Under the pieces are notes generated by a model, which made no database searches, was not told the DNA's origin, and saw only the letters and a program-made list of their open reading frames with translations. From positions 1 through 31,175 of IMG/VR virus record IMGVR_UViG_2565956711_000006: a stretch of 31,175 nucleotides of DNA; one strand, 5' to 3'. A program made the position numbers and the translations under genes. Positions 652 through 21,664 of this stretch are shown here, one piece after another (position 1 is the stretch's first letter; every line of letters starts with the position of its first letter). The stretch comes from a virus (lineage: Duplodnaviria; Heunggongvirae; Uroviricota; Caudoviricetes).

Positions 652-678
652 AAGGCCCCATTTAGGGGCCGCTTTTAT
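652..678. terminator. bidirectional intrinsic terminator shared by the convergent ORF 1..648 and ogr
   Basis: GC stem GGCCCC (654-659) / GGGGCC (665-670) with 5-nt loop, followed by a T-run on the plus strand (gcttttat) and on the minus strand (tttatttattt). Confidence 0.6.
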
Positions 679-917
679 AATGCCAGCGATAACTGATCTT
701 CGCCGTGGTGACTTCTTGGAAAAGCTTCTTGTGGCACCATCGCGCCGGGCGCTGGCTGGGTCTGGTTTAGTGAACCGTCTATTTCCGTCATGCTGGTGAA
801 ACAGTACCCGCACAACATATTTTGACACTGGTGATAGCTGCGCCGCACAAGCAAACTCAGCTCAACACTGGTTCTGGTTTTTGCTATTGCACGGCAGCGA
901 GGACAGCGCATTGCCAT
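675..917 (-). CDS. ogr: late-gene transcriptional activator, Ogr/Delta zinc-finger family
   Basis: 80-aa product MAMRCPRCRAIAKTRTSV...YHQCQNMLCGYCF with C-X2-C-X22-C-X4-C spacing as in P2 Ogr (recalled); AGGAGG 7 nt upstream of ATG at 917; lies directly downstream of D as in P2. Confidence 0.8.
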   Translation of the reverse strand: MAMRCPRCRAIAKTRTSVELSLLVRRSYHQCQNMLCGYCFTSMTEIDGSLNQTQPAPGAMVPQEAFPRSHHGEDQLSLAL

Positions 918-965: not shown

Positions 966-2084
966 TTAAGACGTTGAATCGTCACTCTCCGCTGTCCAGT
1001 CGTCGATTTTTACTTCCAGTTCCAGCGACGTGGTAAACCCTCCCCCGCCAATATCGTGAACGCACCGCGTTATCGTCCAGTTCCCACTGTCGATCGTGGA
1101 CTTAAAGCCGTAGACGCTGGCGGGCTGTTCCGGGTACAAATCTGCGCGGCCACGCGCCAGGGTGATACTGAACGTCGCCGCTCCACGCTGCAACTCCCGC
1201 CACTTAGCCGCAGCGGCACGCTTCGCCGCCTTTTCCGTCTTGAAGGTTTTACGGATAACAAAAACGTTACCTTCGGCCCCGGCCAGATAATCACCCTCTT
1301 TTTTGCTGGATGCAGGCTCTTTCTTTTTGGCCTGGCTGGTTCGTCGCCTGCGGGTGGTTTTCTTCACGGTAGTGGATGGTTTTTTGCCAAAGTTGAGATC
1401 AAGCCAGTATGCAGTTACGCCTGTGTACGCGTCGCGGTCAGCTACGTTAAACCGATGTTTATCACCGCTTGACCGGACGATCTCGATTACCGGCAGCGGC
1501 TTGCCACTCTGCGTCACTCCCTTGCCCGGCGTGATAAACAGAAGCATACCGTTTTTAATGGTTGCCACCGCGCCCAGCATTTCGGCCATGCGCGTTAAGA
1601 AGCTGATATCTGATTCACTCGTCTGATCAGCGTGGTCTATCTCAATCTTCGCCAGTTCTTCGCTGACGCCCGCACGCAGATCGTAGCGGCTGGCAATGCT
1701 GGCGACCACATCCCCCACGGTAATATCGTGCCAGCTATATTCCCTCTTCACGTTGAAGGTATCGCGGAAATCTGCGCTTCTGGCACTGATCGTTAGCTGG
1801 TCAGGCGGGCCAGCGTGTCCGATTTCGTCAACCGTATACACTCCCTTAAAAACCAATGGATCATTATCCCAGCCCAGCGCCACCGATATCTTTGCGCCGC
1901 GTGATGGTAATGCTACCTGCCCGTCAGCATCATCCAGAGTCAGATCCAGCGTGTCCGCTTCAAAGCCCCGGTTATCTGTCAGAGAAAGGGAGATCAGCCG
2001 GTTATCCAGCGCCGTAAGCTGCTTACCCTCAATCTCAATACTGAACGCCGGGCGCGGCGAATATCGGTTTTCTGTCGTGTCCAT
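966..2084 (-). CDS. D: tail protein gpD (late control gene D family)
   Basis: 372-aa ORF; N-terminus MDTTENRYSPRPAFSIEIEGKQLTALDNRL matches remembered P2 gpD/Mu N-type tail proteins; SD GAAGGAG upstream of ATG 2084; D-ogr order as in P2. Confidence 0.88.
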   Translation of the reverse strand: MDTTENRYSPRPAFSIEIEGKQLTALDNRLISLSLTDNRGFEADTLDLTLDDADGQVALPSRGAKISVALGWDNDPLVFKGVYTVDEIGHAGPPDQLTISARSADFRDTFNVKREYSWHDITVGDVVASIASRYDLRAGVSEELAKIEIDHADQTSESDISFLTRMAEMLGAVATIKNGMLLFITPGKGVTQSGKPLPVIEIVRSSGDKHRFNVADRDAYTGVTAYWLDLNFGKKPSTTVKKTTRRRRTSQAKKKEPASSKKEGDYLAGAEGNVFVIRKTFKTEKAAKRAAAAKWRELQRGAATFSITLARGRADLYPEQPASVYGFKSTIDSGNWTITRCVHDIGGGGFTTSLELEVKIDDWTAESDDSTS

Positions 2085-2241: not shown

Positions 2242-3435
2242 ATGGCCACTAACTACCATCACGGTGTAACCGTCACGGAAACCACCGACCTTAGCACGAT
2301 GATCACCGACATTGATTCGGCGGTGATCGGCGTTGTCTGCACCGCTGATGATGCGGACGAAACAGCGTTCCCGCTGGATACCCCTGTACTGATCACCCGC
2401 GTGGCTAACATGCTGGGCAAGGCAGGTAAAACCGGCACCCTGTTTACCACCCTGAAAGCGATTTCAGACCAGACCAGCCCGCAAACCATTGTGATCCGCG
2501 TTGCTGATGCTGCAAATATCGAACCGCCAGAAGGCGGCACCGCACAGACACAGGATCAACTGGTTATTGGCGGCACCGATGCAAACGGACGCTTTACCGG
2601 CATGTACGCGCTGCTGTCTGCCGAAATGCGCGTAGGCGTGCGCCCGCGTGTGCTGGCTGTTCCCGGTCTTGATACGGAAGCGGTGGCCGCACAACTCGGC
2701 GTCATTGCCGAAAAGCTGCGCGCGTTTGCTTACGTGGCAGCGAACGGCTGCAACAGCATCGCCGAAGTGAAGGAATACCGCGAACAGTTCTCCCAGCGTG
2801 AAATGATGGTTATCTGGCCTAATTTCATCTGCTACGACACCAACGCCGGAGCGAATGCCACCGTGCCCGTGGGTGCCCATGCGGTTGGGATGCGCGCCAA
2901 AATCGACGCAACGCAGGGCTGGCATAAAACCATTTCCAACGTGCCCGTTAATAACGTGCTGGGGATGGATCGGGATATCTATTTCACGTTGCAGGGCACC
3001 GATACCGACGCCGACGAACTGAACGCAGCAGGCGTTACCACGCTGATCAAGCAGGACGGCTACCGCATCTGGGGATCGCGTACCTGCGACGCGGAAACGT
3101 ATATCTTCGAAAGCTATACCCGAACCGCGCAGATCGTTGCGGATACCGTCGCCGAAGCACATTTCGCCTATGTTGATAAACCGCTTACCCCGTCGCTGGT
3201 AAAGGACATTGTGGACGGTATCAATAAGAAGCTGACCTCATATGTGACGGCTGGCAAGCTGCTGGGCGCCCGCTGCTGGTATGACCCGGAACCGAATACC
3301 TCGGAAACCCTGCGCAATGGTCAACTGACCATTAAGTACAACTACACCCCTGTTCCACCGCTGGAAAATCTCAGCCTGGTACAGGAGTTCACCGACGAAT
3401 ATTTCGCTACGTTTTCCAGCGCAGTGAATAACTAA
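2242..3435 (+). CDS. FI: contractile tail sheath protein gpFI
   Basis: 397-aa ORF; MATNYHHGVTVTETTDLSTMI... resembles P2 FI; followed by tube and E/E' genes. Confidence 0.92.
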   Translation: MATNYHHGVTVTETTDLSTMITDIDSAVIGVVCTADDADETAFPLDTPVLITRVANMLGKAGKTGTLFTTLKAISDQTSPQTIVIRVADAANIEPPEGGTAQTQDQLVIGGTDANGRFTGMYALLSAEMRVGVRPRVLAVPGLDTEAVAAQLGVIAEKLRAFAYVAANGCNSIAEVKEYREQFSQREMMVIWPNFICYDTNAGANATVPVGAHAVGMRAKIDATQGWHKTISNVPVNNVLGMDRDIYFTLQGTDTDADELNAAGVTTLIKQDGYRIWGSRTCDAETYIFESYTRTAQIVADTVAEAHFAYVDKPLTPSLVKDIVDGINKKLTSYVTAGKLLGARCWYDPEPNTSETLRNGQLTIKYNYTPVPPLENLSLVQEFTDEYFATFSSAVNN

Positions 3436-3447
3436 CCGGGGGCGCTT

Positions 3448-3963
3448 ATGGCACTGCCTAAGAAACTCAAATATTTCAATATGTTCTTTGACGGGGATAA
3501 CTACTTCGGCATGGTGCCGGAAATCACCCCCGCCAAACTCACCAAAAAAACCGAAGACTACCAGGCGGGCGGTATGCCGGGTTCGGTTGCGGTGGATCTG
3601 GGCTTCGACGCTGGCGCCCTGGATATGGATATCACGCTGGGCGGCATGGATGCAGGGCTAATGAAAAAATGGGGCGTTACCACTGCGGACGGAATGCAGG
3701 TGCGCTTTGCTGGCTCTTACCAGGACGATGCGACCGGCGACGCCGTACCGTGCGAAATCCAGACGCGTGGCCGCTTCACTGAACTGGATCCCGGTTCGGC
3801 AAAGGTTGGGGATGATACTTCGCATAAGTACACCCTGAAAAACACCTATTACAAGCTGACCATCAATAGCGAAGAAATTATCGAAATTGATGTGCTCAAC
3901 ATGATCTACAAAGTTGCCGGTGTGGATGTGCTGGAAAAACACCGCGCTAACATCGGCTTATAA
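3448..3963 (+). CDS. FII: tail tube protein gpFII
   Basis: 171-aa ORF MALPKKLKYFNMFFDGDNYFGMVPEITPA..., P2 FII-like size and position. Confidence 0.9.
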   Translation: MALPKKLKYFNMFFDGDNYFGMVPEITPAKLTKKTEDYQAGGMPGSVAVDLGFDAGALDMDITLGGMDAGLMKKWGVTTADGMQVRFAGSYQDDATGDAVPCEIQTRGRFTELDPGSAKVGDDTSHKYTLKNTYYKLTINSEEIIEIDVLNMIYKVAGVDVLEKHRANIGL

Positions 3964-4313: not shown

Positions 4314-4438
4314 AAGACCTGATGGCAGATATCGCCGTCATATTCCACTGGCGGCCGGTAGAGATGGACGCCATGACGGTACAGGAAATACTGTTATGGC
4401 GTGATCAGGCGGCTGCGCGCAGTGGTGGAGATCACTAA
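3978..4438 (+). CDS. E': tail assembly chaperone gpE+E', predicted programmed -1 frameshift product
   Basis: After T6G (4238-4244) the -1 frame stays open to TAA 4436-4438, encoding ...EDLMADIAVIFHWRPVEMDAMTVQEILLWRDQAAARSGGDH, and ends 1 nt before the tape-measure ATG (4439); canonical chaperone frameshift arrangement. Confidence 0.7.
4238..4244 (+). other. slippery heptamer T TTT TTG for -1 ribosomal frameshift
   Basis: ttttttg read in E frame as ..D-F-L..; the -1 frame is open downstream. Confidence 0.7.
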
Positions 4439-9307: not shown

Positions 9308-10852
9308 TTATGCAGCCCTCACAATGTAGTTAAATGCAATGTTTCGCGGGCTACCATCACCGGCGCCGGAACTGACATGATTGGTTCTATCCATTCGTTT
9401 ACTGTCATTTGTTGTTCCACTCCCATCCTTCCACGAATACAATAACCCGCCATCGCCAATGCTCAACTGCACCGCAAATACGGATGAACCGGATGAATAA
9501 ACATCTCCAGCCATGAGTGGGTTCCCTGTCCATCCATGCATTTCATGGTTATGTTCAAGGATAGATGCTGCCTGACTTGAAAGCAGCAGTCTCGCGGAAT
9601 CAACACCTCGCCCATCATCCCACCCGCGAATAAACTCACCGCGCAAATCCGGTAATTTTAACTTTGGGTAAGCCTTTGCCAGTTTTGGGTACTCTTCGGC
9701 AGAAAAAGGTGCACCGTTGCATTTCAGCCAGCCTGTTGGTGGTGTGGCTGAAGGCCACGGAACAGGCACACCAACGGGTAACGCTGAGCCTTCTCCCAAA
9801 CCAAGGTATTGGAGAATGCCGTTAACTGTCTTTCCCGATAAATCAGTTAAAGTGCTATCAAGCGGCTGCTTACCCGCCAGCGCATTCGTTACAGTGGTGG
9901 CAAAGTTTGGATCATTTCCCAGCGCTGCCGCCAATTCATTCAGCGTGTCCAGTGCAGCCGGGGATGATGCTACCAGTGCAGCAATTGCTGATTTCACAAA
10001 TTCCGTTGTGGCAATCTGCGTATTATTCACTGTCTGCGCCGCAGTAGGTGCGGTGGGTGTTCCGGTCATAGCTGGGCTTGCCAGCGGAGCTTTCAACGCA
10101 AGAGCGTTGTTAATGGTTGCACTGAAATTAGGATCATTGTTGATTGCAGTAGCAATTTCTTTCAGTGTATCCAACGTGGCGGGCGCACCTCCAATCACAG
10201 CAACCAACGCCGCCTGAACAAATGCGGTATTCGCCAGCTGTGTGGAGTTATTACCAGCCGTAGCAGTCGGCGCTGTAGGCGTTCCCGTCAGGGCCGGGCT
10301 TGCCTTTGGTGCATATTGTTTATGAGGGTCTGCCGCTGCGATGTGCGCCGCCAGTTGCTGATCTACGAAGGCTTTAACCTGGATTATCTGGTCATCAACA
10401 TACTGACGAGTCGCCAGTACTACCGAAGGGTCAATTTTCAGCGTCACGGCGGCGGTGCTGCTGACAATCAGGATCATGCGTACAACCTGTACGCGCCCGC
10501 TTCCCTCCTGTAACTGCGGCTTATACGTTTCCGCACAGTTGGCTACGGCAATCATATCGCCGTCTTTATCGAATAAACCGATTTCACGGATCCACCACCC
10601 GCCCTCGTCTTCAGGTATCACCTGCTCGGCAATAATCTGGTTGGCGTTATTCGGGTCAATGCTCAGACTATTAAGCGGCTTGCGGCGCAGCTCATGAACC
10701 AGCGCCGTTTGTGCCGGGTTCGGCGTCGGCAACACGCCGTTACCATCGCCTACAGCCATCTTGGTGATTTCAACCTGCGCACCCAATGCCGTGGCATTTG
10801 CCAGTTTCGCCGCGCCCACATTGGTTAGCACGGCATAATATTTAGTCGCCAC
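9308..10852 (-). CDS. H: tail fibre protein gpH (constant N-terminal part plus currently joined variable tip Hv)
   Basis: N-terminal region resembles P2 H (..AVLTNVGAAKLANATALGAQVEITKMAVGDG..); C-terminal tip has tail-collar-like motifs (PWP..GWLKCNGAPFS..LPDLRGEFIRGWDDGRGVD); the track starts at TTG 10873, but GTG at 10852 with GGAG upstream aligns better with the P2 H start. Confidence 0.85.
   Translation of the reverse strand: MATKYYAVLTNVGAAKLANATALGAQVEITKMAVGDGNGVLPTPNPAQTALVHELRRKPLNSLSIDPNNANQIIAEQVIPEDEGGWWIREIGLFDKDGDMIAVANCAETYKPQLQEGSGRVQVVRMILIVSSTAAVTLKIDPSVVLATRQYVDDQIIQVKAFVDQQLAAHIAAADPHKQYAPKASPALTGTPTAPTATAGNNSTQLANTAFVQAALVAVIGGAPATLDTLKEIATAINNDPNFSATINNALALKAPLASPAMTGTPTAPTAAQTVNNTQIATTEFVKSAIAALVASSPAALDTLNELAAALGNDPNFATTVTNALAGKQPLDSTLTDLSGKTVNGILQYLGLGEGSALPVGVPVPWPSATPPTGWLKCNGAPFSAEEYPKLAKAYPKLKLPDLRGEFIRGWDDGRGVDSARLLLSSQAASILEHNHEMHGWTGNPLMAGDVYSSGSSVFAVQLSIGDGGLLYSWKDGSGTTNDSKRMDRTNHVSSGAGDGSPRNIAFNYIVRAA
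9791..9816. repeat. hix/gix-like 26-bp crossover site inside H (right end of invertible segment)
   Basis: ttctcccaaacc aa ggtattggagaa, near-perfect palindrome; encodes ILQYLGLGE in the H frame; resembles remembered hixL/gix sites. Confidence 0.7.
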
Positions 10853-12719: not shown

Positions 12720-13345
12720 ACCGGGCCACCTGTATTACTACCACCGGACTGGACGCCGCTATGTTTGTGAGAATGGACAACGACACCATTAGACGAAAGC
12801 GATCCACCTGAATGGGTAATATTGCCCTTCATTTCCCCGCCCTTTTGCACTTCCAGCGTGGCGGTGATCAGCTTGTTGGTGCAGACCACTTCCGGCGTGT
12901 CCAGGGTAACGCGCGTATCTGCCTTGACCGTTACCACCGGCACGGTGGCGGTAATGGATTCCGACGCGGTGACGCTTGCCGTTTTCACCCCGCTGACAAC
13001 CAGCGCGCTGGCCTCCGGGTCATATGAGATACGGGCGCCATCCGGGTGCAGGATCACGCAGGTGGTAGCGCCAGCATCTGGCGGCGGTGCGTCTTCGCTG
13101 TAAAGGCTTCCGGCAATGAATGCCGTTTCCATCTCACCGCAGGGGCACAAAATATAAACCTGTTCGCCCACTGTCGGCGCCCACCACGTCACGGCTTCAC
13201 CGGCGCGCGGCACTGCCCAGCGGATCCAGTCGGTTTTGTTCTCGCCGGTTTCGACGCGTGCAAGATACTTTTTCGTGTCCACTTCCAGCACGGTGCCAAT
13301 GCGGGCGAGATTGCAGATAAGGCGATAGAGTTCGTTTAAATTCAT
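12716..13345 (-). CDS. V: baseplate spike/central hub protein gpV
   Basis: 209-aa ORF MNLNELYRLICNLARIGTVLEVD...; first gene of V-W-J-I-H-G operon. Confidence 0.85.
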   Translation of the reverse strand: MNLNELYRLICNLARIGTVLEVDTKKYLARVETGENKTDWIRWAVPRAGEAVTWWAPTVGEQVYILCPCGEMETAFIAGSLYSEDAPPPDAGATTCVILHPDGARISYDPEASALVVSGVKTASVTASESITATVPVVTVKADTRVTLDTPEVVCTNKLITATLEVQKGGEMKGNITHSGGSLSSNGVVVHSHKHSGVQSGGSNTGGPV

Positions 13346-13483
13346 AGTGCTGACTGTTTCCCGTGGTGCCGGTTACGCTGTCCGGCGTCGCTTCCGCCCG
13401 GTAGCAGGCTTTACGACCGTTTCGGCTTTTGGGTTATGCAGTCAGTATCAGGAGTCGCGCGCGCGCAAACAACGCGGCGCCAT

Positions 13484-13501
13484 TGTGGCAGGTTGGTGAC
13501 A
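13484..13501. promoter_or_regulatory. TGT-N12-ACA dyad, candidate Ogr box for the V-operon late promoter
   Basis: tgt ggcaggttggtg aca; 20 of 22 nt identical to the FI-proximal element (cattgtNgcaggttgNtgacaa); candidate -10 gatact on the minus strand at 13444-13449. Confidence 0.55.
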
Positions 13502-17865: not shown

Positions 17866-18912
17866 TTATGGTGCCGGTGCTGGTTCGGCGGCGGTAATGC
17901 CTTCGATCAGACAGCCGAAGCCGTAATCTTCAACAACATAGGCATCATTTGACGAACTGTAAGTAGAGACGCGGTTATATTCCGGCTCTTCCACAATGCG
18001 GCGACGGTGCGCACCTTCCTGCCAGTAAATCGACAGGTTTTCCCACGAAGTGATAAACATGCTGCCATCAGGGAAGAAAGGCGCGATGAACGAAGGCAGG
18101 TTGCCGATCGTCTTACGCGATGCGATCAACTGACCGGCCAGCGCTTCGGAGTTCGGGTTATTGGTGCTGACAGCGTTGATGATCGGGAACGAACGGCTAA
18201 CCGTCAGGTTACGACCGGTGATCACCACCAGATTGGGCGAATCTTTGTACCACTCGTCCATCAGTGAGTTAACCGCGTCATAAACCAGCGAGTCGTAGTT
18301 ACCGTAATCACCTTTAGCGATCACCTGGTTGGAATCGTCGCGGCTGGTCACGGTGATATCTTTCATTACACGTTGCGGCGCGTTTGCGCGGTACTGTTGC
18401 AGCCAGCCGATGCCACAATCCTGCAAAAGCGGGTTGGCGTTGCGGTCTGACTTATCCGCGTAGCTGGTTCCGTTAAAGCCGATCATGATGCGATCAAGCG
18501 CGATACGCTGGATGATCTGATTGCTCAGACGCTGCTGGAAATCGTGGAATTTAGCCCAGGCATCAAGCTGCGCATAAGAGGCGAAAGTATCCGCGTTCAC
18601 CTTATTACAGGTGTACTTGTTTGAATCCAGCGCCGTGACGGAAACAGGCTGGCGGCGATCGGTGGTGGAATTGTTGGTGCTGGAGATCGGGCCGCTCACA
18701 CCCAGACCGATTTTTTCACCGGACTGATCGTTAACGCCGTAGATATTAATCTTCTTCAACATTTCGGAAGACTGCTGCACCTTGTCTTCAAGCGTCTGCT
18801 CAACGCTCGGATCAATGCTGAACGCCTTTGTTACGTGGGACTTATTGATGTGATTCAGTTCAGCTTGTCGCTCAAGATACGCATCAAACAATTCACGGGT
18901 AGAATTACGCAT
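17866..18912 (-). CDS. N: major capsid protein gpN
   Basis: 348 aa, P2 N-like size and position; SD AGGAAA upstream. Confidence 0.9.
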   Translation of the reverse strand: MRNSTRELFDAYLERQAELNHINKSHVTKAFSIDPSVEQTLEDKVQQSSEMLKKINIYGVNDQSGEKIGLGVSGPISSTNNSTTDRRQPVSVTALDSNKYTCNKVNADTFASYAQLDAWAKFHDFQQRLSNQIIQRIALDRIMIGFNGTSYADKSDRNANPLLQDCGIGWLQQYRANAPQRVMKDITVTSRDDSNQVIAKGDYGNYDSLVYDAVNSLMDEWYKDSPNLVVITGRNLTVSRSFPIINAVSTNNPNSEALAGQLIASRKTIGNLPSFIAPFFPDGSMFITSWENLSIYWQEGAHRRRIVEEPEYNRVSTYSSSNDAYVVEDYGFGCLIEGITAAEPAPAP

Positions 18913-18952: not shown

Positions 18953-19798
18953 TCAGCAGTCAGCAAGCTGGGCGTTAGAGTTTTCAGTTGCGCCGGTCGC
19001 TTCCGGGCGGCGGTATTTACTGGCGTCCTGGGTAGAAAGCTGCGCTTTCATCTCGTCGAACTCAGAGCGCAACTTATCCACCGCTTCGGCGGTCTGCTTG
19101 TTCTTAAGCTGCCCTGCGCTCAGTTTTTCCATCTTGTCCAGCAATTCACCCTGACTTTCCGCTACCAGTTCAACCGCCTGGCGGATATCGCCATTTTCAC
19201 GATCGAAGTGCTGGCGGGTTCCGGTCAGCATTTCCTTGATACGGGAAAAGAAATTCTTCCCGGTGTCGGACGCTGGCGGCTCTTCCTGCGCAAATTCGAG
19301 GGATGATTCCAGGGTTTCAGTGAAGAAGCATTCAGGTGCGTAGTGACGCGCAGCCAGTGGGTTGGCGCTGGCGTTCTGGGTGCAAAACTTCATCATTTCG
19401 GTGCCCAGGCTCGCCGGGTTATCGGTACAGGCCAGCCCCATAAGGTAGGCTTTTCCGGTGTCGGCAAAGGACGGATGCACCTCAATGCTATGGTAGATTT
19501 TCTGGCGTTTGCCTTTCAGTTCTACCAGTTCGTCCGTGGCGTCCACCTTCACCAGAAGCGCCAGTTTGCCCTTTAGCGGGCCCTCGGCAATCTCTTCTGC
19601 TTTGGCTTCAACCACGTCACCATACGCGCGGAAATCGCTTGTCGGCGACCAGCCTAAAATGTGCTCCAGATTGACGCGGGCGCCATATACCTGGGGATCG
19701 TACTGTTCGGCCATTTCGGTGATGTGCTGACGTTCCAGTACTCGACCGTCACAGGTTGCGCCCTCTACTGCGGCGCGGAAAAAATTTGTCATTGGCAT
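18953..19798 (-). CDS. O: capsid scaffolding protein gpO
   Basis: Start at ATG 19798 (MPMTNFFRAAVEGATCDGRVLERQHITEMAEQYDPQVYG...), which parallels the remembered P2 gpO N-terminus; the track's longer ORF extends upstream without support. Confidence 0.82.
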   Translation of the reverse strand: MPMTNFFRAAVEGATCDGRVLERQHITEMAEQYDPQVYGARVNLEHILGWSPTSDFRAYGDVVEAKAEEIAEGPLKGKLALLVKVDATDELVELKGKRQKIYHSIEVHPSFADTGKAYLMGLACTDNPASLGTEMMKFCTQNASANPLAARHYAPECFFTETLESSLEFAQEEPPASDTGKNFFSRIKEMLTGTRQHFDRENGDIRQAVELVAESQGELLDKMEKLSAGQLKNKQTAEAVDKLRSEFDEMKAQLSTQDASKYRRPEATGATENSNAQLADC

Positions 19799-19887
19799 GG
19801 TGACAAAGCTCCGGGTTGGTAAGCGATTGATATTAACCAGTGCCCCAATCATTCCCTTTGCGGCCGGAAGGCGCAAAGCCTTCACTT

Positions 19888-19905
19888 TGTCGGACTCAGG
19901 CGACA
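19888..19905. promoter_or_regulatory. TGT-N12-ACA dyad in the divergent O / P late-promoter region
   Basis: tgt cggactcaggcg aca; centre 19896.5, which is 98.5 bp from the O ATG and 55.5 bp from the P ATG. Confidence 0.5.
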
Positions 19906-19951
19906 ACCAGCGGCGATATTGTTGCGCGCGCGAGCGCGATAGCCTGTTGCC

Positions 19952-21664
19952 ATGAATACAGCCGAAGACCTCAGCACAAAAGCCAAAAGCCTCTACTGGC
20001 AGGCGTTTAGCATCACTCAGATTTCTAAGGAAATCGGGGTGAGCATTAACACGATCTACAGTTGGCGCCGCCGCTATGAATGGGATAAAGCTACCCCCAT
20101 GCAGCGGGTGCAGGATCGCACGCACGTTCGTTACCTGCGCCTGGTGGAAAAGGACGACAAAACCCCGAAGGACTTTAAAGAAATTGACCTGCTGGCGCGC
20201 CAGCTTGACCGCTTTGAACGGCATGAGCGACGCGACCAGGAGAAAGAGAAGAAGGCGAAGACCCCGAAAAACCATTTCACCGAAGAACAGATAACTCAGC
20301 TTCGCGCCCTGATCTTTGATTCGCTATACGAGCATCAAAAACGCTGGTTCAAACAGTGGAACCGGCGTAACCGCTTTATCCTCAAATCGCGCCAGATTGG
20401 TGCCACCTGGTACTTTGCCCGCGAAGCGCTGTTGCGTGCGCTGGAAACCGGAAATAATCAGATATTCCTGTCAGCCAGCCGCGCCCAGGCGTTCCAGTTC
20501 AAGCGGTTCATTCAGAAGCTGGCAAGGGAAATAGGAGTAGAACTTAAGGGCGGTGATGCCATTGAGTTAAGCAACGGTGCGATCCTGTATTTTCTCGGCA
20601 CCTCCGCCGCGACGGCCCAGAGCTACACCGGCGATCTGTACCTTGATGAAGCCTTCTGGATCAGTAATTTCATCAAACTGCGCTCGGTGGCCGCAGGCAT
20701 GGCGACACAAAAAGGACTGCGCCGCACCTACTTTTCGACGCCTTCCAGTGAAGAACATGAAGCCTATCCCTTCTGGACTGGCGATCAGTTCAATGAAAGC
20801 CGCCGCCGATCCGATCGGGTGGATATCGACACCAGTTATAAGGCACTGAAAAACGGCAAGCTATGCGGGGATAACATCTGGCGCCAGATAGTCACGCTGG
20901 AAGACGCCATGAAGCTCGGTTTCGATCTGGTTGATATTGATGAAATCCGTAGCGAAAACTCCCTTGACGAATACGCCAACCTGTACGGATGTACCTTCGT
21001 TAAAGCAGGGGAACGCGCCTTCGACTACAACACAATTTTGGGCTGCGGCGTTGATGGCTACATGCCGGACGCGTGGCCGGACTGGAACCCGTTTGCACCT
21101 CGCCCGCTGGGTAATCGCCCTGTCTGGGTTAGCTATGACCCCAACGGCAGCAGCGGCAAAGGCGACAGCGCCGGGCTGGTTGTGCTGGCCCCGCCAGCCG
21201 TGCCGGGTGGCAAGTTCCGCGCGGTAGAACGCCACCAGTTACGCGGCATGGAGTACGAAGAGCAGGCCAAATTTATTAAAGAGATCACCACCCGCTACAA
21301 CGTGCAGCACATTGCTATCGACGGCACAGGGATCGGCGATGCGGTTTATCAACTGGTGATCAAGTTCTTCCCGCAGGCGGTTAAATACAACTATTCACCG
21401 GTTCTTAAGCGGTCGATGGTGCTCAAAATGTTGATGGTCATTCGTGCCGGGCGCTTTGAGTTCGACGCCGGAATGATGGATCTCGCACAGTCGTTTATGA
21501 CCGTGCGTAAAGTCACCGCAGGCGGCGTTATTACCTACCAGTCCGATCGGGCCCGTGGCAGCAATCACGGCGATCTGGCATGGGCAACTATGCAGGGCAT
21601 TTACAACGAACCGATCGGCGCGGAAGTGACCGGCGATAACGGCAGTTTTGTGGAGGAGTTTTAA
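19952..21664 (+). CDS. P: terminase large (ATPase) subunit gpP
   Basis: 570 aa; N-terminal HTH-like segment then ATPase and nuclease regions; divergent from O as in P2. Confidence 0.9.
   Translation: MNTAEDLSTKAKSLYWQAFSITQISKEIGVSINTIYSWRRRYEWDKATPMQRVQDRTHVRYLRLVEKDDKTPKDFKEIDLLARQLDRFERHERRDQEKEKKAKTPKNHFTEEQITQLRALIFDSLYEHQKRWFKQWNRRNRFILKSRQIGATWYFAREALLRALETGNNQIFLSASRAQAFQFKRFIQKLAREIGVELKGGDAIELSNGAILYFLGTSAATAQSYTGDLYLDEAFWISNFIKLRSVAAGMATQKGLRRTYFSTPSSEEHEAYPFWTGDQFNESRRRSDRVDIDTSYKALKNGKLCGDNIWRQIVTLEDAMKLGFDLVDIDEIRSENSLDEYANLYGCTFVKAGERAFDYNTILGCGVDGYMPDAWPDWNPFAPRPLGNRPVWVSYDPNGSSGKGDSAGLVVLAPPAVPGGKFRAVERHQLRGMEYEEQAKFIKEITTRYNVQHIAIDGTGIGDAVYQLVIKFFPQAVKYNYSPVLKRSMVLKMLMVIRAGRFEFDAGMMDLAQSFMTVRKVTAGGVITYQSDRARGSNHGDLAWATMQGIYNEPIGAEVTGDNGSFVEEF

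Follow-up and report, generated by a model that had tools for sequence, protein, structure and literature searches.

A single late-activator site probably serves both divergent promoters between genes O and P of a P2-like prophage

The stretch of DNA analysed here (31,175 nt; hereafter the window) is a P2-like Peduoviridae prophage, with Pfam matches for O, P, portal, capsid, sheath, spike and gpD. Over 1 kb it is 95.6% identical to the Salmonella phages SEN4/SEN5 (genus Senquatrovirus), and several E. coli chromosomes, among them those of strains AR_0128 and CX08, carry a prophage that is 100% identical to it across the 501 bp compared (19650-20150). Of 5,426 E. coli genomes available in complete form, 28 contain the SEN4/SEN5-like lineage. 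Promoters go unmentioned in the SEN4/SEN5 paper, and our search of the literature returned no promoter analysis for this lineage. A sequence-only reading had rightly described the 153-bp gap between the capsid scaffold gene O and the terminase gene P as a divergent control region. The genes concerned are:

675-917, minus strand: Ogr/Delta-family zinc-finger late activator, 80 aa, with the motif C-X2-C-X22-C-X4-C
17866-18912: major capsid gene, next in the O operon and followed by downstream late genes
18953-19798, minus strand: gene O, capsid scaffold/protease, 281 aa (Pfam Phage_GPO, E = 1.6e-96)
19798, minus strand: ATG of O
19952-21664, plus strand: gene P, terminase large subunit, 570 aa (Pfam Terminase_5, Terminase_6N, Terminase_6C)

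The same O and P starts are given in the RefSeq/PGAP annotation of near-identical E. coli prophages. The gpP of the window is 47% identical to that of P2, its residue 5 aligning with P2 residue 11. Late promoters of the P2/186 type require an Ogr/Delta C4 zinc-finger gene, and the window has one: the reading frame at 675-917 matches PF04606 (E = 1.5e-13; 50.9 bits versus a cut-off of 26.3), and its product is the presumed dyad-binding protein. Within the gap and at its edges, we annotate the following elements:

19809-19812, minus strand: GGAG Shine-Dalgarno of O, read from the sequence, 10 nt upstream of the ATG
19841, minus strand: predicted pO start (an A), from P2 geometry
19848-19853, minus strand: -10-like hexamer AATGAT of pO, exactly 34 nt from the dyad, 4/6 consensus positions
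19856-19878, no strand: second inverted repeat CTTTGCG-N9-CGCAAAG, centre 19867, at -15 to -37 of the predicted pO
19871-19876, minus strand: -35-like TTGCGC of pO, 17 bp upstream of AATGAT
19888-19905, no strand: 18-bp partial dyad TGTCGGACTCAGGCGACA, putative Ogr-family site common to pO and pP, centre 19896.5
19922-19939, plus strand: GC-rich block TTGCGCGCGCGAGCGCGA in the pP spacer, about -30 to -13
19940-19945, plus strand: -10-like hexamer TAGCCT of pP, exactly 34 nt from the dyad, 3/6 consensus positions
19952, plus strand: predicted pP start, the A of the P ATG, from promoter geometry

The TGT-N12-ACA dyad, whose arms extend to TTGTCG/CGACAA (19887-19892 and 19901-19906), lies where the sequence-only reading had placed it. 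So do the second repeat, a GATATT hexamer at 19915-19920 (48 bp from 19867) and the 55.5 bp that separate the centre of the TGT dyad from the P ATG. The bare pattern is not enriched in the window (six matches versus 5.8 expected) and its count is uninformative; position and geometry were therefore used instead. The gap holds only one Ogr-type dyad, and its centre is 55.5 bp from both predicted starts, 19841 and 19952. On either side, the same ungapped register leads from the dyad across 34 nt to a -10-like hexamer and, after 6 further nt, to an A, so that the two hexamers are placed symmetrically.

Phage P2 offers the closest annotated counterpart. Its RefSeq record (NC_001895) places the P start at 3016 on the minus strand, the O start at 3127 on the plus strand and one ‘activator binding site; pO, pP promoters’ at 3057-3087. 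The P2 dyad, TGTGTCAGTGATAAGCCA (3063-3080), is likewise centred 55.5 bp from both annotated starts, and the pO leader comprises 40 nt. P2 and the window share homologous flanking genes (gpO scaffold, gpP terminase), one 18-bp partial dyad, starts 111 bp apart, a 34-nt spacer between dyad and -10 hexamer on both sides, TAGCCT at pP, a GC-rich block in the pP spacer and an Ogr-family activator. They differ in that the P2 dyad is imperfect (TGT-N12-CCA) whereas that of the window is perfect, and in that P2 pP has a 23-nt leader with a GAGG Shine-Dalgarno whereas the window has neither, its ATG coinciding with the predicted +1. Moreover, a -35-like TTG at the pO of the window is missing in P2, the two activators are 30% identical, and the starts in the window are predicted.

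Two further phages bear on the comparison. In the record of phage 186 (NC_001317), one B-protein site (3798-3817) is annotated for ‘activation of pV and p12 promoters’ between divergent O and P homologues, and p12 has the hexamer TAGCCT; unlike in the window, the P-homologue side has a leader of ~23 nt with a Shine-Dalgarno, and the site does not match strict TGT-N12-ACA. For Stenotrophomonas phage Smp131, the promoters PP' and PO' were assigned to the same 18 bp (nt 4381-4398) in both directions (PMC3931495), in this case by prediction only and in a distant host and genome. The sequence-only reading had taken each promoter to need an element of its own. This contrasts with the P2 and 186 records, which annotate one common site, and with the symmetric geometry of the window. 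Known P2/186 biology thus answers the puzzle of the two dyads with no need to assign the second element to a promoter.

We compared the gap across 14 prophage relatives (gpP identity 66-98%) from Salmonella, Citrobacter, Xenorhabdus, Photorhabdus, Providencia and Morganella, and extended this set by P2 and five further phage records. The intermediate relatives came from bacterial genomes; a search of phage collections with the O-P gap gave alignments to SEN4/SEN5 only, and a protein search, which covered roughly 490 phage records that encode gpP, gave none with an identity between 59% and 99%. Every one of the 14 relatives has an 18-bp dyad here, either TGT-N12-ACA or, in Providencia, TCT-N12-AGA, and the succession of dyad, 34-nt spacer and hexamer is kept on both sides in all of them although the rest of the gap has diverged. 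When IMG/VR was scanned for the Providencia-type GTTCTCA-N8-TGAGAAC, in search of a phage with this dyad at several late promoters, the matches listed included unspecific single-site ones only.

The same register recurs at other late operons of the window:

2152-2169, no strand: second common late-activator dyad, TGTTGCAGGTTGCTGACA, between the divergent pF and pD
2216, plus strand: predicted start of pF (tail sheath), with a -10-like AATGAT identical to that of pO
about 2105, minus strand: predicted start of pD (gpD, then the ogr homologue)
13484-13501, minus strand: pV dyad (baseplate spike operon), with a -10-like GATACT at 13449-13444 and a predicted start at 13437

Three of the six TGT-N12-ACA sites (19888, 2152 and 13484) fall within the non-coding 8.6% of the window, and each of these three precedes late genes, namely the O/P, F/D and V operons. 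At the non-coding sites, xAxxxT stands exactly 34 nt from the dyad in five of six orientations, while at the three coding sites it is absent from all six; the chance of finding it at a given position is about 0.053. The 34-nt spacer is found at all five window promoters, whose starts are predicted, and equals the register of P2 promoters with mapped starts. For the SEN4/SEN5-like lineage, this allows five predicted late promoters to be added to the annotation, along with their three putative activator sites. The internal bases of the O/P dyad differ from those of the pF/pD and pV dyads.

We conclude that the O-P gap is probably a P2-type bidirectional late-promoter region, in which a single activator site would turn on both genes. 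What we observe directly are the elements and the exact distances between them, and that they recur at other late promoters and are kept in relatives; from this we infer activator binding to the dyad, both transcription starts (extrapolations from P2), leaderless translation and contact with the alpha subunit. In the proposed mechanism, the Ogr-family protein encoded at 675-917 on the minus strand would bind TGT-N12-ACA at 19888-19905, midway between two divergent, weak sigma-70-type promoters, each 55.5 bp from the dyad centre. P2 Ogr contacts the C-terminal domain of the RNA polymerase alpha subunit and, by analogy, the bound activator would recruit RNA polymerase to both pO and pP. The pO transcript would run left from 19841 through a 43-nt leader with GGAG into O, the capsid gene and the late genes, while pP would read right from 19952 and give a leaderless terminase/portal mRNA. 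Scanning 19700-20050 for sigma-70 consensus promoters yielded zero matches, with partial hexamers only, as expected of activator-dependent promoters. The model further implies that neither dyad is transcribed; an Rfam scan of 19600-20150 (E up to 1) returned no RNA family.

On the leftward side, the earlier proposal that the TGT dyad more plausibly serves O than P is supported in its fit to pO and not supported where it sets P aside. The motif xAxxxT occupies the exact pO register in 14/14 relatives and in P2 (GAAACT), and all nine clade members aligned, SEN8 and YenM_31.17 have a TTG at spacer positions 12-14, as do the pD and pV of the window. An alternative -10 for pO, TAATAT (19835-19830, minus strand), was rejected: the dyad centre would be near -73.5, neither a -35 nor a TGn accompanies it, and no hexamer occupies this register in the relatives. 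As hexamers, TAATAT and GATATT look better than the weak -10-like ones.

The -35-like TTGCGC of pO falls within the right arm of the second inverted repeat, which we regard as most likely incidental rather than regulatory, its right arm being the -35-like element and its left arm unconserved spacer. One might instead suppose that CTTTGCG-N9-CGCAAAG is a genuine operator for another phage or host protein, repressing or tuning pO independently of pP. Its form and place are suggestive: a perfect 7-bp repeat around a 9-bp centre overlaps the -35/spacer region of the predicted pO, and repressors often bind there. As single-stranded DNA it folds with a z-score of -2.8 (2 of 200 shuffles fold equally well), and none of the seven close sequences has a change in its 6-bp core, CTTTGC-N11-GCAAAG. 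However, perfect inverted repeats of at least 7 bp with a 3-15-nt loop arise in 11.3% of dinucleotide shuffles of the 153-bp region and in 12.3% of the window's 153-bp tiles. The window contains no recurring half-site and no further copy within two mismatches; three others have three mismatches each, and the resulting total of four matches with up to three mismatches shows no excess over the roughly three expected. Nor is the core's conservation informative: close relatives show 99% conservation over the entire O-P gap and for this reason say little for or against the second dyad. Where they do vary, five of the seven close sequences have an A at 19862 that breaks the inner pair without a compensating change, and four of the eight variable gap columns cluster in the centre (19862-19871). 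The prophages of Xenorhabdus, Photorhabdus, Providencia and Morganella, and P2, have no dyad at the equivalent place, whereas distant relatives keep the TTG beneath its right arm, which the conserved -35-like element already explains. Judged as an operator, then, the repeat is neither unexpected, nor recurring, nor conserved as a dyad, and we consider such a role improbable. Two further candidate functions were discarded: as a terminator, the repeat has no T-run and gave no match in a terminator scan of 19700-20050, and as a degenerate Ogr site it matches at best three of the six specified bases.

The second repeat also figured in the suggestion of the sequence-only reading that it forms the P promoter together with GATATT. 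According to this two-element view, the TGT dyad would serve pO only, and the second dyad, with GATATT as -10, would drive P from a start near 19927 through a leader of ~25 nt. GATATT is indeed nearer to the -10 consensus than TAGCCT and is also found in Photorhabdus prophages, and such a leader would resemble the 23-nt leader of P2 pP. Yet with GATATT as -10 the centre of the second dyad would be near -60, about half a helical turn off the -55.5 register predicted for every other late promoter, and the dyad itself is unlike TGT-N12-ACA, imperfect in most close relatives and missing in distant ones. GATATT is likewise absent from the Xenorhabdus, Providencia and Morganella prophages and from P2, whereas the hexamer at N34 is kept. 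The ~25-nt leader would still lack a Shine-Dalgarno, and P2 and 186 make do with a single site. With GATATT poorly conserved across relatives and the second dyad off register, we rejected this hexamer as the pP -10 and hold the two-element view to be very improbable.

For pP we thus retain TAGCCT. P2 pP has the identical hexamer in the same register, with its annotated start 7 nt downstream, and TAGCCT is also found in Photorhabdus prophages and in Yersinia phage vB_YenM_31.17. At the position of the GC-rich block, a CGCGCGGGCG-like block is kept in the clade, P2 has CGCGGGGCGCGA, and the pV and pD spacers of the window hold a similar block. With the predicted start at the A of the ATG, a leaderless P mRNA is implied, and it is this that the 55.5-bp distance from dyad to ATG suggests. 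The earlier reading had instead taken so short a distance as a reason to assign the dyad to O. Against this stands P2 gene V, whose transcript is annotated to start at the first base of its ATG, 55.5 bp downstream of the centre of the activator site. Moreover, each of the 14 prophage relatives has its P ATG at the predicted +1 or +2, and so do SEN8 and vB_YenM_31.17, two of the five further phage records. As leaderless late messages occur in P2-like phages, the distance from activator site to ATG is unfit to exclude a promoter there. Christie & Calendar 1985 is among the works cited by a paper on leaderless transcripts (PMC4633059).

Gene P also has the properties looked for in a leaderless message, namely an AUG start, no usable Shine-Dalgarno and no alternative start upstream. 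It begins with ATG in the window, as it does in each of the 16 relatives whose ATG lies at the predicted start; no GGAG-like Shine-Dalgarno occurs in 19930-19951 of the window; and the TAG at 19940-19942 is an in-frame stop four codons before the ATG, so that no P start codon is possible upstream of 19952. It could still be that the dyad is common to both promoters, as in P2, and that the P mRNA is not leaderless, starting at least a few bases upstream, or that P is translated from another transcript. Start-site choice may shift by 1-2 nt, the prophages of Xenorhabdus, Photorhabdus and Morganella have the A of the ATG eighth rather than seventh after the hexamer in our register, and leaderless translation is generally inefficient in E. 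coli. We nevertheless think a leader unlikely, given an ATG no more than 1 nt from the predicted +1 in 16 genomes of at least three phage genera with diverged flanks, together with the invariable ATG, the missing Shine-Dalgarno and the in-frame stop of the window, and the precedent of P2 gene V.

In a broader, two-part reading, a leaderless mRNA of the P-Q operon would be a feature of several Peduoviridae genera, extending over Senquatrovirus, Felsduovirus, Graikaemvirus and the clade of Morganellaceae/Xenorhabdus/Photorhabdus prophages, and, as its less likely part, an acquired operator at 19856-19878 would tune pO separately. For this reading we see the balance as about even. If it is true, leaderless P would represent a precise loss of the 23-nt leader of P2 and 186, which perhaps limits the amount of terminase compared with that of the capsid proteins expressed from pO. 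A terminase ATG at the predicted +1 across several genera bears on the stoichiometry of terminase to capsid and on natural leaderless translation in enterobacteria. The leaderless gene would not be the same in the two phages: in P2 it is the baseplate spike gene V, in the window the terminase gene P, and for gene V of the window a leader of about 92 nt is predicted.

Over positions 19400-20400, the window shares 95.6% identity with Salmonella phages SEN4/SEN5 (genus Senquatrovirus), and the stretch 19650-20150, matched at 100% identity by several E. coli chromosomes, is present in 28 of 5,426 complete E. coli genomes. The O/P region is part of a P2-like (Peduoviridae) prophage. Its gpP is 47% identical to that of P2, with the Terminase_5 domain starting at residue 10; a portal gene follows P and a P2-family major capsid gene follows O. 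In near-identical E. coli prophages, PGAP annotation assigns identical O and P start codons and leaves the gap empty. Pfam domains, neighbours and PGAP starts thus bear out the gene names O and P and delimit 19799-19951 as a 153-bp gap between divergent genes, with the following features:

Start codon end at 19798, minus strand: gpO capsid scaffold gene (Pfam Phage_GPO, E = 1.6e-96)
From 19952, plus strand: gpP large terminase gene (Pfam Terminase_5, Terminase_6N and Terminase_6C domains)
19888-19905: TGT dyad (TGT-N12-ACA), TGTCGGACTCAGGCGACA, centre 19896.5
19940-19945, plus strand: TAGCCT of pP, the predicted late promoter of P, after a 34-nt spacer from the dyad; predicted +1 at A 19952
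19853-19848, minus strand: AATGAT of pO, the predicted late promoter of O, after a 34-nt spacer from the dyad; predicted +1 at A 19841
19856-19878: second dyad, CTTTGCG-N9-CGCAAAG, centre 19867
19915-19920: GATATT, at -37 to -32 of predicted pP

Both inverted repeats are real and lie exactly where the sequence-only reading had placed them, but only the TGT dyad exceeds chance, and it does so through its context; the bare TGT-N12-ACA pattern is no more frequent in the window than expected (6 matches versus 5.8). When the promoters were aligned without gaps and anchored on this dyad, the two -10-like hexamers and their exact spacing were directly visible. From the dyad centre to the first base of the P ATG is 55.5 bp, and the placement of the dyad at -55 holds relative to the -10-like hexamers, the starts being predicted. 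These predicted pO and pP starts are 111 bp apart, equal to the P2 spacing, and the pO message would carry a 43-nt leader (P2: 40 nt) with GGAG 10 nt 5' of the O ATG. The dyad had been judged more plausible as an element of O; it does fit pO, but most likely serves pP too. We consider it probable that one TGT dyad is common to the divergent pO and pP.

The RefSeq record of P2 annotates:

3016, minus strand: transcription start of the P operon
3127, plus strand: transcription start of the O operon
3057-3087: 'activator binding site; pO, pP promoters'

The P2 dyad TGTGTCAGTGATAAGCCA (3063-3080, centre 3071.5) lies 55.5 bp from both starts, themselves 111 bp apart, and P2 pP, like that of the window, has TAGCCT in this register, 7 nt upstream of the start (annotated in P2). 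The 186 record gives a single B-protein site, located where its O and P homologues diverge and labelled 'activation of pV and p12 promoters', and the Smp131 authors placed PP' and PO' on one 18-bp stretch, used in either direction (PMC3931495). In P2-like phages one dyad serves both divergent promoters, so that asking which element serves which promoter, with one element for each, started from a wrong premise. Compared with P2 and 186, the window differs in its perfect TGT...ACA dyad, a -35-like TTG in pO, the predicted lack of a pP leader and a divergent activator (30% identity to P2 Ogr), encoded as follows:

675-917, minus strand: Ogr homologue of 80 aa with C-X2-C-X22-C-X4-C (Pfam Ogr_Delta, E = 1.5e-13)

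In P2, Ogr makes contact with the RNA polymerase alpha subunit at its C-terminal domain. Once replication has taken place and the activator has been made, the homologue would bind 19888-19905 and, presumably through an alpha-subunit contact like that of P2 Ogr, bring polymerase to the weak promoters on either side. From pO would then come an ordinary mRNA with a leader, for scaffold, capsid and the genes after them, and from pP an mRNA beginning 5'-AUG for terminase and portal. At the sequence level, the O/P region shows every feature of an Ogr-dependent late promoter pair of the P2/186 type (an activator gene, the dyad, its location ahead of late operons, a weak core promoter and a single site for both promoters) and, as posed, is an ordinary case of a known late-promoter type.

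The same register recurs, as a direct observation, at other late promoters of the window. Three of the six TGT-N12-ACA matches fall in non-coding DNA, which makes up 8.6% of the window:

2152-2169: in the space separating gpD from the tail sheath gene
13484: upstream of the spike/baseplate gene V
19888: in the O/P gap

The hexamer xAxxxT (chance ~0.053 per position) stands exactly 34 nt from the dyad in five of six orientations at the non-coding sites versus none of six at the coding sites; the sole non-coding orientation without it faces the 3' end of a convergent gene. Two predicted promoters flank the 2152 dyad:

AATGAT, predicted start 2216: pF, for the sheath operon
GACGAT after 34 nt, strand opposite pF, predicted start ~2105: pD, for gpD (966-2084, minus strand) and the ogr homologue (675-917, minus strand)

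With hexamers at this distance on both sides, the 2152 dyad would likewise be common to a divergent pair, making a single dyad used both ways a repeated design in this phage. pD and pV, the predicted promoter of V (13501-13437, minus strand), are near-identical cassettes. The ogr homologue would belong to a late operon that its own product switches on, a positive feedback. From its predicted start at 13437, the pV message would have an ~92-nt leader to the V ATG at 13345 (minus strand); in P2, V has no leader. Among P2-like lineages, the leaderless state seems to have shifted from one late operon to another. The 12 nt right after the dyad, ACCCTTATTCAT, are identical in window pF (2170-2181) and in pP of a Providencia rustigianii prophage (locus L008, ~1452-1463), and this match between different promoters of different phages hints that the activator/polymerase contact region reaches past the 18-bp dyad.

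Scanning bacterial genomes with the first 300 gpP residues yielded 14 usable prophage loci, with gpP identities of 97-98% in Salmonella and Citrobacter and 66-71% in Xenorhabdus, Photorhabdus, Providencia and Morganella. Beyond close relatives the gap has almost wholly diverged; conservation of dyad, 34-nt spacer and hexamer on both sides is seen directly in every locus (ungapped, anchored on the 18-bp dyad). O-side hexamers comprise GAACAT, GATGAT, GATTAT, GAAGAT, GAATAT and GATAGT (P2: GAAACT), and P-side hexamers TAGCCT, GGAAAG (better read as GAAAGT, one base later) and CAAAGT. In the Providencia prophages (L008, L012, L013 and L014; ~1434-1451), TCT-N12-AGA replaces TGT-N12-ACA in the same register, one example, TCTCATAGCGCTATGAGA, being a perfect 18-bp palindrome. 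Such a replacement would be expected under site-activator co-evolution and may reflect a change of activator specificity. Further copies of the Providencia-type dyad were sought in phage contigs, where the matches listed were unspecific.

The 55.5 bp to the ATG had been held against a role of the dyad at P. This objection probably falls away given the conserved ATG placement and P2 V, leaderless at equal distance: its transcript is annotated to start at 10308, right on the first base of its CDS, and the centre of its activator site (10239-10266) lies 55.5 bp before that. Christie & Calendar 1985 is among the references of a paper on leaderless transcripts (PMC4633059). In the window and 14 of 14 prophage loci, the P ATG stands at +1 or +2 of the predicted pP start, in the order -10-like hexamer, 6-7 nt, ATG and lacking a Shine-Dalgarno sequence (window 19940-19954; L003-L016 ~1480-1506). 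Two phages share this layout, again lacking a Shine-Dalgarno sequence: Salmonella phage SEN8 (Felsduovirus), with the P ATG 55.5 bp from the centre, and Yersinia phage vB_YenM_31.17 (Graikaemvirus), with TAGCCT-N6-ATG at 56.5 bp; P2, 186 and Enterobacter phage phiT5282H have a 20-23-nt P leader with a Shine-Dalgarno sequence. Reading the sequence before the window P ATG revealed no Shine-Dalgarno sequence, an in-frame TAG (19940-19942) precludes an upstream P start, and all genomes whose P start codon stands at the predicted start use ATG. Judged from geometry and conservation, the distance has the look of a leaderless P2-type late message, and the arrangement suggests a conserved P-Q mRNA that would be translated without a leader across several genera. 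A limited literature search returned no published description of a terminase ATG at the predicted +1; we regard its occurrence in several genera as a modest side observation.

As control elements, the second dyad and GATATT, earlier paired and placed towards P, find no support in chance frequency, register or conservation. A perfect inverted repeat of at least 7 bp with a 3-15 nt loop occurs in 11.3% of shuffles of the 153-bp region and in 12.3% of 153-bp window tiles, and the window holds no other copies of this dyad beyond chance at up to 3 mismatches. A further perfect 7-bp repeat with a 9-nt loop, TTTGTCA/TGACAAA, lies across the O start codon (19785-19807), so such repeats are common in this region. 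Taken as a late-promoter site, the second dyad points rightward, over 55.5 bp, to 19922-19923, with no hexamer in place, and leftward to ~19811-19812, on the O Shine-Dalgarno sequence; with GATATT as -10, its centre falls near -60. GATATT is kept only in Photorhabdus prophages among the relatives. Lying upstream of both predicted transcripts, the dyad would not be an RNA element; it has no Rfam match, and a scan shows no terminator-like site.

That the second dyad is the site of a repressor of pO strikes us as quite improbable. In its favour stands only that it covers -15 to -37 of predicted pO, where such a repressor could sit, and that this perfect 7-bp repeat folds well as single-stranded DNA (z = -2.8). 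Among seven close sequences, 99% identical over the gap, four of the eight variable columns fall within 19862-19871, and an A at 19862 in five of the seven breaks the innermost pair with no compensation at 19872; distant relatives have small inverted repeats at other positions of the spacer. The left arm is unconserved, most relatives having ATTGC there, a TGn extended -10 missing in the window. For pO as served by the TGT dyad, the right arm reads CTTTGCG on the O strand (spacer positions 10-16) and coincides with AA.gcTTTGag, the one block that relatives conserve in the O-side spacer. Its TTG, at spacer positions 12-14 and exactly 17 bp upstream of the -10-like hexamer, makes this a -35-like element: TTGCGC in the window, TTGCCA, TTGAGT, TTGAGC or TTGAAC in relatives, TTGTTT in SEN8 and TTGTTG in vB_YenM_31.17. 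Window pD (TTGTTC) and pV (TTGTTT) have TTG at identical spacer positions.

Two minor features lie beside these promoters. TATCAATCGCTTA (19820-19832, minus strand), at +9 to +21 of the predicted pO leader, is the sole match in the 31-kb window to the IHF core consensus WATCAANNNNTTR (0.92 expected per window) and is not kept in distant relatives. An alternating GC block, TTGCGCGCGCGAGCGCGA (19922-19939; clade consensus CGCGCGgGc), occupies ~-30 to -13 of pP and recurs there in every relative, despite divergence elsewhere in the gap. The spacers of pV (~13458-13471) and pD (~2119-2135) contain similar blocks, those of pF and pO none, and P2 has a comparable block, CGCGGGGCGCGA.
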